DNA from: Podarcis pityusensis
Lineage: Eukaryota
DNA length: 64,000 bases
Direction: 5' to 3' (one strand)
Assembly: GCA_964106645.2 (NCBI GenBank)
Contig: OZ067038.1
The position numbers and the translations under genes were made by a program. The notes beneath the pieces are model-generated. The model did no database searches. It was not told the origin of the DNA and saw only the letters and a list, made by a program, of their open reading frames with translations. Shown here piece after piece: positions 36,175 to 40,668 of the stretch (its first letter is position 1; every line of letters begins with the position of its first letter).

Positions 36175-36517
36175 AAAGGGACCCCTGACCGTTAGGTCCA
36201 ATCTCGGATGACTCTCGGGTTGCAGCGCTCATCTCGCTTTACTGGCCGAGGGAGCCAGCGTACATCTTCCGGGTCATGTGGCCAGCATGACTAAGCATGA
36301 CTCTGGCAAACCAGAGCAGCGCACGGAAACGCTGTTTACCTTCCTGCCAGAGCGGTACCTATTTATCTACTTGCACTTCATGCTTTCGAACTGCTGGTTT
36401 GGCAGGAGCAGGGACCGAGCAACAGGAGCTCACCCCATCGCGGGGATTCGAACCGCCGACCTTCTGATCGGCAAGCCCTAGGCTCTGTGGTTTAGCCCAC
36501 AGCGCCACCCGTGTCCC
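36175..36517 (-). mobile_element. Sauria (Squam1) SINE, full length
   Basis: Reverse complement of the 20559 type; TSD gttgtgggcagt at 36163 and 36518. Confidence 0.93.
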
Positions 36518-36624
36518 GTTGTGGGCAGTGGGAGGGCATAATTTCCCCAAATCTTGTCTTTCCCCCCTCACCCACAACTTAATGTGTCTTGGGCCAGAGC
36601 TAGTTTTAAACAAGCCATGCCTCG

Positions 36625-37059
36625 TGTCATAAATATAGGGGTTGCTCGTGCGTAAGTTGCCGCCACTCCTGGCTAGGTTGCCTTGTTAAACCTTTTCTGT
36701 CTGGACAGCCCTTCACTTTGTGGCTGTTTCAGTCGCTAGCAGAATCCGTCAGTGGGCGTTTCTTAAACCTTTTCCAGCATAAAAGCTGTTTGACCCCAAG
36801 TCTCCTCCTACTCTCCCTGCGCGGAAGTCTTCTGCGCAGGGAGGGTGTGGGTAGGGGAGGACCCGTGCTCTCCCCGCTGGTCTCCAGCGAGGAGTCCTGG
36901 AGCCCCCTCACCGATTCCCCCATCTGCCCCCCTTTATCCCTGGTGTTACGCTGATTTCCTTCCCTGGCGGATGAGCTGCCTCTCTCCCTGCTGGGCCCTT
37001 CTCCAGCATCGCTTGAGAGCCTTGCCTCCACCTCTGGCTCCGATGTCAGTTCCCTGACA
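36625..37059 (-). mobile_element. Solo LTR (Gypsy-like) containing a 110-codon open frame
   Basis: tgtca...tgaca termini; perfect 5-bp TSD cctcg; paralog at 39915-40369. Confidence 0.9.
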
Positions 37060-37194
37060 CCTCGCTTAGCCCAAATCACCATTACATCTAGTTCAGCCCT
37101 AGTGTTAGTCAAGTGCAGTCATGGCCATGTGCAGGCCTGGGCAACTAGTGAATGCACATAAGCTAAATGCAGAGCACATGTGCAGAGAGCCAGC

Positions 37195-37385
37195 TGTCAC
37201 AGTGTTGGAGGAGGACGAGGGAGACCCAGGTTCAAATCCCGACTTAACCATGAAACCTGTAGATGGTCTTCAGCCAAACAATCACTTCCTCTCATTCTGC
37301 CTCACAGGATTAAAAGAAGGCGATGAATATATAACTCCCGGGGGGGGGGGGGGAGAGGATATAAATACAATCAATAAAATAAATA
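37195..37385 (+). mobile_element. Squam3-like tRNA SINE (old)
   Basis: gtgttggaggaggacgagggagacccaggttcaaatccc (B-box) ... gatataaatacaatcaataaaataaa. Confidence 0.6.
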
Positions 37386-37885
37386 TGGAAGCTCATGGAG
37401 GAGAACGCTAAAACCTCTCCATGTCAAAGCTTCTCAGGCCTTTCAGAAATAGGTGGAGTGGGTCGCCAGGTATGAGATGGCCTGTAATACACAGTGGTGT
37501 CGACTTGCATTCTCCTCAGCAAGTTGTCCAGGCTTAGGCATGTAAAACGTGAAACTTTTGCTATGATTAATACAGGTGTTTTCTAAAACCTTGCAAAGGT
37601 TTTCATCCAGTGTTTTAGAATTGTATAGATATATAAAATAAAATATAAAATAAAATAACACCCTTCATCCAAGGATCACAGGGTGGTTTATAGTATAAAA
37701 ACACACACAAAAAATAGCATAATAATAAACAGACTCATAACCCTCCCCCCATTTCATTCAGAGATATATTTCATTCATGCGCATGTATGTAAATGAAATG
37801 GGGGGGGTATTGGTTTGTTGGTTTGTTTGTTATTACATGTTTTTCTGTTTTTGTAGTGTGTTTGTGTGTGTGTGTATGCTATATG

Positions 37886-38310
37886 CAGTGCTTTTTTCTA
37901 AAACAAACGTTTAGGGGTATAGTCATACCTCAGGTTACAGATGCTTCAGGTTGCATTTTTTCGGGTTGCAGACCACCAAAACCCGGAAGTACTGGAACGG
38001 GTTACTTCCGGGTTTTGGCAGTCGTGCATGTGCAGAAGCACTAAATTGCGCTTTGCGCATGTGCAGAAGCACCAAATCGCAACCCATGCGTGCACAGACA
38101 TGCCGCTGCGGGTTGCGGACGCTGCGGGTTGCGGACGTGCATCCCACACGGATCACGTTCACAACCCGAGCGTCCACTGTACTCTCATTTGGACTCAAGA
38201 AAATCACCATTTTATAGTTCAAATTGGGAAAAATAAATACAATAAATGGACAAAAGTGCAAAGATTCACGTAATGCTTAGGGGTATGCGTACCCCCAGAA
38301 AAAAGCACTG
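37886..38310. mobile_element. hAT MITE hosting a Tigger-like MITE
   Basis: 14-bp TIR cagtgcttttttct/agaaaaaagcactg; TSD gctatatg/actatatg. Confidence 0.88.
37920..38179. mobile_element. Tigger-like MITE family D (nested)
   Basis: TA TSD; agtcatacctcaggtt / aacccgagcgtccactg; relative at 52099. Confidence 0.85.
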
Positions 38311-38811
38311 ACTATATGTATATACACAGTTGTCCCCAACAGCTGCAGATAGGCAGGGTCATAAACTCTGCTAACAGGGGTGTTTTCTGAAAGAAAAGGG
38401 GTAAAAGACTACTTAGGGATCAGAGAGTGCAAGGGAGAGGTTAAGAAATAAAACTGAAAGTGATCACATGTCATTAGATGGATTTGTATGATATGAAGAG
38501 AAACCAGAGTGATCATATGCTGTTATTCCAGTCACTTTTCTTTTTGCCTTTTAGTCAAAAATTAGTTGTTGTTTCTAACTGAAGTAGAACATAACTTAAG
38601 CAAAAAAAAATGAAGTTCATTGCTTCATTTGGAAGGTTTTTTGGCTTAGATGCAGACATTTCCGTTGCATCAAGAAACAGACCGTCTGAAGTAGACAGAC
38701 ACAGACAGACCATGGCTATATAGCAACAGACCATGGGGATGAATAAATGGTGTTGTGCAATTCAAATAGAGAAGAGAGAAGATGGGGGCAAATAAAGCAG
38801 CCACATTTCAC

Positions 38812-38945
38812 CTTTGCAGAAAGGCGAATGAATACAGCTTTGGACAAAAATACCGACGGAGCACAAAGACCGCAGGAAAATGCCTGTGCTGAACTCTAGT
38901 CAGGCCACTGCAGTTTCCACAGTGGTCAGTCTTGCAACCTTTGTT
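38812..38945 (-). other. Candidate 134-nt exon
   Basis: gctttacag|AACAAAG...GCAAAG|gtgaaa; one open frame NKGCKTDHCGNCSGLTRV...; no recognised homolog. Confidence 0.25.
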
Positions 38946-39914
38946 CTGTAAAGCCTCACAGACCAGAAAGCAGAGTAATAGTTTAAGGATAAAAAGGCTG
39001 CAATTCTCCATTGCATGTGGTTTTAAAAATTGAGCATCAGAATAACACTGAGTAAAACCATAGTGATTGTGGACCCAGCATTAAAAAAACAAAAACAAAA
39101 AACAAAAAAGGACTTCTTAAGGAAATTTGGCCATTGGAAATTCCAGTATGAATTTACCCAAGCAGCTCCTCTGGAGTAATGTGTAGATTATAATTTAGTT
39201 ATCCACCAGCTCTCCTTCCCAACACTTTCTGGCTCAAATTGAGATGGGGTGTGTGTGTATGTGCTTTAAATTGCATATTTGGATGGTAAATATATTTAGA
39301 AATAGGCTTTTTCAAGGAAAATACATTTTTTAAATAGTTTTTAAAACACAGATTTTGTGTGTGTGTGTTTAATTACAGATAAATGCAGAAACAGAACAGA
39401 ATGGACTTTTTAGCAAACATATGTGAACACAGAATAGAAATACCAGGTTTCATCAATCTGTAGTTAAAATGTGGCTGGCTGTCTAGAATAATACAAGCAC
39501 ATCCCATAGTCTGGAGAAATCTTACTGTCGAAGAGGGTCACCAAAGGTCTCAATTTACATGACTCAACTCATCTGATACATTTTGGTGCTACTGAATCCA
39601 AATTTTCACTTTAATCAGCCATTGGAAGTTGGCTTTTGACAAAAAATAGCCTCTGTTGCTACTAGCCATGACATTGGAGGCATATATTTGTGAATCATTC
39701 CTGAAAGGCTCTCTGCAATAAAGGTTCAACATGTCAATGGACCCATATCTGCAAGTTTCCTTTTCTGCTATAGTGCCCAGTTCTCTTAGCTCTAGTCAAA
39801 ATCTCATTTGTATCCAATATTTGCAAAAGGGAAATAAAACACATTACACATGTTGCCAATGAAATCATTATGTGATTAAAAATACAACATTTTAACATTT
39901 CACAGAAAAGTAAC

Positions 39915-40369
39915 TGCAATGGTTCTAGGGGTTGCTCGTGTGTAAGCCGGTGCTTATCTCCCCGGCTGGGTGCAAACACCTGGCTGGGTTGCCTAAGTGA
40001 ACCTTTTCTGTCCGGACAGCCACTCACCCGTGGCTGACTCAATCGCTGGCAGAATCCGTCAGTGGGCGTTTCTTAAACTTCTTCCAGCAAAGAACCTGTT
40101 TGACGCCTAGTCTCCTCCTACTCTCTCTGCGCGAAAGCCTTCTGCGCAAGGAGGGCGTGGGCAGCGGAGGACCCCTACTCTCCCCGCTGGTCCCAGGCAA
40201 GGAGTCATGGGACCGCCTCGCCGCTTCCCCCCTCTGCCCCCCTTCTCCACTGGTGCTACGCTGATTCTCTTCCCCAGAAGATGTGCTGCTTCTCCTGATC
40301 CCTGGACGCTCTGTGGAATCCCTCTGGCTTTTGCTCTCTCCCTCCGGCACTGATGGCAGTTCCCTGACA
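39915..40369 (-). mobile_element. Solo LTR (same family as 36625) containing a 110-codon open frame
   Basis: tg...tgaca termini; perfect 5-bp TSD gtaac. Confidence 0.9.
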
Positions 40370-40668
40370 GTAACCAACAGCATTCTGTTTCTGATTAAAG
40401 TGTTCCTGTGATGTACATACAGATGTAGACAAAATGGCACCAGCCACAAACACAAGAGGGAGCGATCAACTGACTCTGGGTAACCTTGAGGTTTGCAGGA
40501 ATATGAAGCATCTTTTTGGGGAGGGAGAACTTACAGAGAGAAACATTTGTGTGTGAGAAAGAGAAACAGAGTGTATGGGAAAGTGAGATGAAGGAGGAGA
40601 TGTGGAGGTGTGGAGAGAACCATCTTGTTTTCTGGATAGTTCATTTCCTGGTTCATGCTAAGATGCTA

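Follow-up and report, generated by a model that had tools for sequence, protein, structure and literature searches.

A Pol C-terminus written into the long terminal repeat of a lacertid lizard chromovirus, and its putative role in integrase import and tethering

Why should two solo long terminal repeats (LTRs), left by independent insertions of a lizard retrotransposon, each contain a reading frame whose end looks protein-coding? The LTRs lie in a 64,000-nucleotide stretch of Podarcis pityusensis DNA (contig OZ067038.1 of assembly GCA_964106645.2; the whole stretch is called the window), where an initial annotation had placed them between the target-site duplications (TSDs) CCTCG and GTAAC. 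Both are present as described, and they represent two subfamilies, A and B, that are 83% alike. The annotation had suggested that the frames are under purifying selection and are entered from the internal region of a Gypsy-like element, either as a C-terminal extension of Pol/integrase or as an accessory open reading frame (ORF). We find that the solo-LTR frame is very probably the tail of the Pol protein of a chromovirus, entered from the integrase and chromodomain through the polypurine tract (PPT). The Pol-tail identity that the annotation had offered as one option thus stands; the chromodomain, the self-priming primer-binding site (PBS) and two FxGF motifs upstream of the LTR lay outside its view.

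Continuity of the LTR frame with pol

In both LTRs the frame starts at LTR base 2 on the minus strand and comprises 109 sense codons followed by TGA; the 330 nt free of internal stops that the annotation had given include this stop, and the two frames align without gaps, as it had stated. Each subfamily has many further copies in the genome, about 97% identical (best 40 of 2871 A candidates and best 40 of 2468 B candidates). When the last 52 residues were used as a protein query, 8227 first-look candidates were obtained in the genome, the best 150 of which were scored.

Full-length elements, whose recovery the annotation had proposed as a check, bear out entry from the internal region: pol reads stop-free across the PPT and on into the 3' LTR, and in A-type copies it stays open over 1062, 1052 and 1011 codons between reverse transcriptase (RT) and the LTR stop. 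A fourth long open frame in the A-type search was rejected, its LTR being inserted in a long interspersed nuclear element. HIV nef and MMTV sag are separate genes that overlap U3 and have their own start or a spliced RNA. The lizard frame resembles them in placing protein coding inside U3, but it is the unbroken end of pol; because intact copies have no stop between the chromodomain and the LTR, and no start codon, an accessory ORF of the nef or sag type is unsupported, and the continuous frame of the full-length copies argues for a C-terminal extension of Pol/integrase.

Thirty A junctions between pol and LTR were collected by DNA search and 30 B junctions by pattern, the frame not being used in picking them. 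Among the scorable ones, the second FxGF motif is in phase with the LTR at 21 of 29 in A and 17 of 28 in B, and the chromodomain is in frame with it at 19 of 28 and 15 of 29, respectively; the two commonest junction spacings of subfamily B differ by exactly 3 nt. Related families show the same continuity. In family C (seven elements, L133-L139), 217 codons lie in the LTR and six of the seven elements are in frame, one with a frame of 1538 codons. Thirteen of 16 D-type loci (74-103 LTR codons) and all seven A-variant loci are in frame, loci of both kinds having been chosen partly for long open frames. Family E has 100 LTR codons, and 29 of 150 matches end a 1374-codon open frame (hand count), the two that were opened both being integrase-chromodomain; in family F (108-109 LTR codons) the single junction seen is in frame. 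Across a 14-row alignment of lizard tails, the LTR-coded part is 74-217 codons long and always in frame, and four related families have in common a layout with a basic cluster and an almost invariant Cys-Trp (CW). Nine UniRef Pol models of Podarcis muralis, the species of the closest named proteins, match the tail profile, and Ensembl-derived UniRef Pol models contain the tail without comment.

Selection on the LTR-encoded codons

A recount of codons 60-109 between the two window LTRs gives 13 synonymous and 4 replacement differences, as in the annotation's hand count for the last 50 codons; the first 59, which it had called divergent, differ at 5 synonymous and 32 replacement codons. By the method of Nei and Gojobori (NG86), the nonsynonymous and synonymous rates (dN and dS) of codons 60-109 are 0.046 and 0.474 (ratio 0.10, Fisher p 6.8e-6), with 12 of the 18 base differences in this C-terminal part at third positions, and the ratio for codons 1-59 is 0.82 (p 0.57). 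The claim of purifying selection consequently survives for the last 50 codons and fails for the first 59, which are near neutral.

Natural copies from the genome yield the same division. Copies out of register were dropped (9/60 A, 10/61 B, 1/31 E, 7/30 F) and duplicates were then merged, leaving 49 A, 50 B, 21 E and 23 F copies, with at most 20 of each entering pairs. Between subfamilies, dN/dS over the last 50 codons is 0.13 for A-B, 0.08 for A-E, 0.31 for A-F and 0.36 for B-F, the B-E and E-F comparisons being saturated; over the first 59 codons it is 0.71-0.78. Of the variants found in at least three copies, 36 are synonymous and 21 cause a replacement or stop, against 45:76 for private variants (p = 0.0013). 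Premature stops occur in 4 of 49 A, 3 of 50 B, 0 of 21 E and 5 of 23 F copies, and the control region after the stop, at 6 codons, was too short to give statistical power. When five A/B/F-type copies are divided into segments, dN/dS is 0.06 in the chromodomain, 0.12 and 0.07 in the FxGF motifs and 0.17 in the LTR core, with 0.76 in the PPT region and 0.69 in the LTR linker as the unconstrained parts; the LTR core of the D families gives 0.19-0.29. The end of the frame is under protein-level purifying selection, confined to the last 50 codons.

The element and its relatives

Full-length copies encode gag with a CCHC knuckle, protease (PR), RT, RNase H, integrase (IN), a Tf2-type SH3 domain and a chromodomain, and a G-rich PPT precedes the 3' LTR; the Pfam domains in the family A pol frame are RT, RNaseH, H2C2, rve, SH3_Tf2 and Chromo. 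Gag followed by PR-RT-RNaseH-IN between TG...CA LTRs, with TSD and PPT, is the order of Ty3/Gypsy elements, and the chromodomain (PF00385, E=1.8e-9 in family A, folded in the model) is that of chromoviruses; the family C domain aligns with the others but has no Pfam Chromo match.

No tRNA PBS was found in the elements; instead, a stretch of 11 nt beginning about 2 nt past the 5' LTR has its complement within the LTR. This match is present in 11 of 16 tested elements of families A, C and D, the five others being three A copies that carry a single substitution and two D copies whose bounds were wrongly set, and the same arrangement is seen by eye in family E. A PBS complementary to the element's own LTR is the self-priming arrangement of the Tf1/sushi group, or V-clade (PMC6317226, PMC4600332). 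By its PBS, this lacertid chromovirus is of the self-priming Tf1/sushi type; in BLASTP, its Pol is 34-43% identical to fish and frog proteins. If the 11-nt stretch is taken as the RNA 5' end, as in Tf1, transcription would start at window position 36753 in LTR A and 40063 in LTR B, within the last 6-8 codons of the frame and just short of its stop, and the frame would therefore span all of U3 (Table 1). In family C, GTAAGT, a splice-donor consensus, stands directly after the 5' LTR and overlaps the self-priming PBS (L133:939-944, and L137).

Table 1. Positions in the window of the two solo LTRs, their target-site duplications and the parts of their frames
Feature	Position	Strand	Remarks
Solo LTR, subfamily A (LTR A)	36625..37059	-	435 bp, TG...CA
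TSD CCTCG, left copy (LTR A)	36620..36624	.	
TSD CCTCG, right copy (LTR A)	37060..37064	.	
LTR A frame	36729..37058	-	Last 109 pol codons + stop; would fill U3
LTR A, codons 1-59	36882..37058	-	Ser/Gly/Glu-rich linker; open, drifting (dN/dS 0.7-0.8), predicted disordered
LTR A, codons 60-109	36732..36881	-	Conserved basic module, 14 K+R, TP site, CW
LTR A, 11 nt complementary to family PBS	36743..36753	-	Putative self-primer, within the frame's last codons
Solo LTR, subfamily B (LTR B)	39915..40369	-	455 bp
TSD GTAAC, left copy (LTR B)	39910..39914	.	
TSD GTAAC, right copy (LTR B)	40370..40374	.	
LTR B frame	40039..40368	-	Last 109 pol codons + stop
LTR B, codons 60-109	40042..40191	-	Conserved basic module, 15 K+R
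LTR B, identical 11 nt	40053..40063	-	Putative self-primer

The annotation knew of no description of such a frame. That a pol gene may run into the LTR is, however, on record. In plant CRM group A it reaches into the 3' LTR, and the part coded there, the CR motif, is a conserved putative integrase targeting domain (PMC3059260, PMC3605345); in pufferfish V-clade1, pol partly overlaps the LTR (PMC11117352). The lizard pol likewise runs into the 3' LTR; however, the CR motif replaces the chromodomain, whereas the lizard elements keep theirs upstream of the PPT, and CRM primes with tRNA-Met, whereas the lizard elements self-prime. With vertebrate V-clade chromoviruses they have in common Gag followed by PR-RT-RH-IN-chromodomain, and the self-priming PBS. 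Fish library proteins end in the chromodomain, an AT-hook-like PRGRGRP, GG-x-V and about 20-26 further residues, which suggests, from the protein only, a short read-through of that many codons. In contrast, the lizard tail extends for about 175-350 residues past the chromodomain and covers all of U3, has acidic FxGF motifs where the fish have the AT-hook, and follows a chromodomain in which the first and third cage aromatics are missing. A third comparison is Ty1, whose integrase has a C-terminal bipartite nuclear localisation signal (NLS) with a targeting domain (PMC7459421), a short C-terminal region combining nuclear import with host-factor tethering; Ty1 is a copia element in which the region is not LTR-coded, and the likeness drawn here is one of layout.

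In our literature searches the lizard tail, whole-U3 coding in this group and FxGF motifs in a retrotransposon integrase were not found described, although older subscription papers and Repbase/Dfam, outside the scope, may hold them; the available part of PMC3601003 has nothing on ORFs in LTRs. As far as these searches reach, whole-U3 coding, a chromodomain without two cage aromatics and two acidic FxGF motifs before the LTR are new.

Several further observations concern the distribution of the copies. They lie on all large contigs. One 38-Mb contig (2.5% of the genome) holds 19 of the 40 best family A LTR matches, 0 of the 40 best family B matches and 4 of the 150 matches of the young family E; the family A excess appears to reflect copies that were kept and duplicated on a chromosome rich in repeats, perhaps the W. 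A family A element (L031:1980-6900) is broken up by a solo LTR of family C and by non-LTR sequence that carries RT, and the LTR pairs of family C are 99.5-99.9% identical, yet in five of its seven elements the frame changes within pol. Window positions 36190-36515, about 100 bp away from LTR A, hold a short interspersed nuclear element-like stretch, possibly a Sauria SINE.

Anatomy and possible function of the tail

From the 14-row alignment, the order of the tail is chromodomain, FxGF motif 1 (an aromatic, an 8-residue acidic linker and FxGF), acidic spacer, FxGF motif 2 (W-x3-F, acidic linker and FxGF), PPT-coded Gly/Glu and the LTR-coded part. The latter consists of a Ser/Glu linker that varies freely in length, then a basic cluster and a hydrophobic stretch ending in CW, mostly with further basic residues behind it; the W is invariant and the C is present in 13 of 14 tails. 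In AlphaFold models the chromodomain alone folds. Its third cage aromatic is absent in 14 of 14 tails and its first in the 12 rows covering that position; it therefore does not have the three cage aromatics of a type I chromodomain, and it likely no longer reads methyl-lysine. Among library chromodomain matches, 79 of 91 keep the first and 83 of 91 the third cage aromatic. Thirty-eight of the 91 scorable library matches have an AT-hook-like motif directly after the chromodomain and no acidic tail, those looked up being catfish, carp and characin.

Neither the LTR peptide nor motif 1 has a match in Pfam, PDB or Atlas. When 1.8 billion representatives were searched with a profile, only three of the top matches had the full tail, and 5 of 129 scorable matches had FxGF after the chromodomain, the three named ones all being Podarcis. 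Given this rarity, the long tail seems restricted to one lineage, although the database covers transposon proteins thinly. Two library proteins of more distant families (P0135 and P0142) have a chromodomain and one acidic FxGF, and P0135 also ends in a basic cluster and LLCW.

The FxGF motifs resemble TND-interacting motifs (TIMs), which consist of a helix, an 8-16-residue acidic linker and FxGF, the last being needed for LEDGF and HRP2 (PMC9987994). Like these, the lizard tail has, in a disordered region and twice in series, a hydrophobic stretch, an 8-9-residue acidic S/T linker and FxGF, with GF at motif 1 in 14 of 14 tails (the first F in 13) and motif 2 in 13 of 14; unlike them, the lizard motifs sit in a retrotransposon integrase tail. 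The family C motif linker is Ser/Thr-rich and not acidic. Hydrophobic spacing fits the TIM helix, but the lone-chain model, at low confidence, places none at motif 1 and a 3-residue one at motif 2. LEDGF and HRP2 genes are both in the genome. A complex prediction for the lizard LEDGF TND (residues 289-376) with motif 1 gave 0.31, against a mark of 0.34 and three controls at 0.00, and is not used as evidence. Lentiviral integrase binds the TND through its folded core, not through an FxGF-type motif. Judged from their sequence, the lizard motifs are candidate binders of the LEDGF/HRP2 TND, an assignment that we make tentatively.

Overall, we consider it probable that the end of Pol, read through the PPT into the 3' LTR, provides integrase with a nuclear-import and chromatin- or host-factor-binding tail in its conserved last 50 residues; on the strength of residue patterns, an import or tethering role as such is favoured, if by no means assured. 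The full-length RNA would end in R and would therefore carry all of U3, such that Pol would be made with the tail, which would stay attached to integrase. The basic clusters may then serve as an NLS importing the integration complex, a short amphipathic L/W-L-C-W helix may bind a partner, possibly a host chromatin protein, and the FxGF motifs may take over targeting from the degenerate chromodomain. Since reverse transcription gives both LTRs of every new insertion a copy of U3, a solo LTR retains the code passively, and the frames at this locus, which lack a start codon and sit upstream of the putative promoter start, are relics. A search of sequencing runs listed no RNA run carrying the sequence. 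When reads of three raw RNA runs and a set of contigs were compared with a family A element, each gave 50-124 records, on both strands, mostly partial, with no pile-ups at starts or ends and with no bridging record seen; the runs may be from another species.

A number of observations weigh against this interpretation. The LTR peptide has no match in Pfam or PDB. Junctions are out of phase in 8 of 29 cases in A and 11 of 28 in B, through G-run slips of several lengths, and the D and A-variant loci were, as noted, not chosen blind to frame. Slips number 7 in 27 A, 12 in 25 B and 0 in 13 E, these G-run counts being the only usable part of an indel-rate comparison along pol, the rest of which is dominated by reference-specific indels; homopolymer assembly indels may inflate the out-of-frame counts in all families, and three of the four A copies that are one base short represent one duplicated insertion, because flank and clade are common to them. 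Family C has neither the second FxGF nor the basic cluster after the W, and the D families differ much from A. Relative to the private-variant baseline, in which 37% of variants are themselves synonymous, A-B alone reaches significance (p = 0.011, against p 0.11-0.47 for the remaining five pairs), and an antisense shadow frame reaches 0.32 for A-F and 0.29 for B-F, as low as the pol frame or lower. The first 59 LTR codons are near neutral. Finally, constraint on the DNA contributes to the conservation, since the self-primer overlaps the last 8 codons and, in three families, follows CW at a distance of 26 nt.

An alternative that is unlikely, yet the most serious, holds that the tail is encoded by Pol and selected but is only an NLS on a spacer, with no part in targeting and with FxGF motifs that bind a non-TND partner or nothing. 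The 14-15 K+R in two clusters of each 50-residue terminal module, the tail's predicted disorder with one weak 4-residue helix and the near-neutral linker are all consistent with it. But an NLS needs neither an invariant W nor a near-invariant C across families whose Pol proteins are only about 56% identical, the FxGF motifs are constrained as strongly as the chromodomain, and family C does without the basic cluster after the W.

We regard as improbable a tail cut off by the element's protease to yield a small separate protein, which might be a chromatin tether, as gammaretroviral p12 is, or a lipid-modified membrane anchor formed by the basic-hydrophobic-Cys stretch. The long flexible linker between the chromodomain/FxGF part and the terminal module would suit such a protein, as would the conserved Cys with its hydrophobic and basic neighbours; however, no conserved cleavage site appears in the alignment, and the known chromovirus analogues (the CR motif) are described as integrase C-termini.

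If the conserved features were DNA or RNA signals (promoter and self-primer) and the open frame a tolerated read-through without a protein role, the position of the 11-nt primer in the last codons, the 26-nt distance to CW in A, C and one D element and the near-neutral N-terminal half would find an explanation. This is very improbable, as the bias remains without the last 8 codons (A-B 9 synonymous to 4 nonsynonymous; 29:20 for common against 40:64 for private variants, p = 0.023), the distance from CW to primer is 33 in other D elements, and synonymous-site saturation between A and E (dS about 3 against dN 0.26) largely refutes it. That the selected frame is instead an antisense ORF across U3, with the pol-frame signal as its shadow, is hardly credible: both window copies do have a plus-strand frame that stays open throughout the segment, with a ratio of 0.20-0.32, but it has no ATG in LTR A, exceeds the ratio of the pol frame where pairs are best resolved (A-B 0.32 vs 0.13; A-E 0.20 vs 0.08) and competes with a sense frame physically continuous with pol.

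The Pol-tail reading answers the question raised by the two solo LTRs: thousands of lizard solo LTRs look protein-coding because the end of pol is written into the LTR. Gene predictors can take this frame for a false exon, and one Podarcis gene model ends in it: A0A670JKR6, a P. muralis UniRef entry for a phospholipid-transporting ATPase, has as its C-terminus the final 44 residues of the LTR peptide of family A, probably a prediction artefact and less probably an exonisation. The elements also offer a natural case of a promoter region obliged to code for protein, with many subfamilies for measuring the trade-off. If the FxGF pair binds LEDGF/HRP2, it would be an independent route to the lentiviral integration tether and a lead on the insertion-site choice of vertebrate Gypsy elements, which is poorly known. 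It is conceivable, though we advance it as a speculation, that lacertid chromoviruses traded the kit of their fish relatives, a methyl-lysine cage plus AT-hook, for a disordered tail with two TIM mimics gripping LEDGF/HRP2 and a U3-coded module for import or nucleosome docking. If this is true, a retrotransposon would have reached HIV's host tether by motif mimicry, its whole promoter region doubling as protein code.

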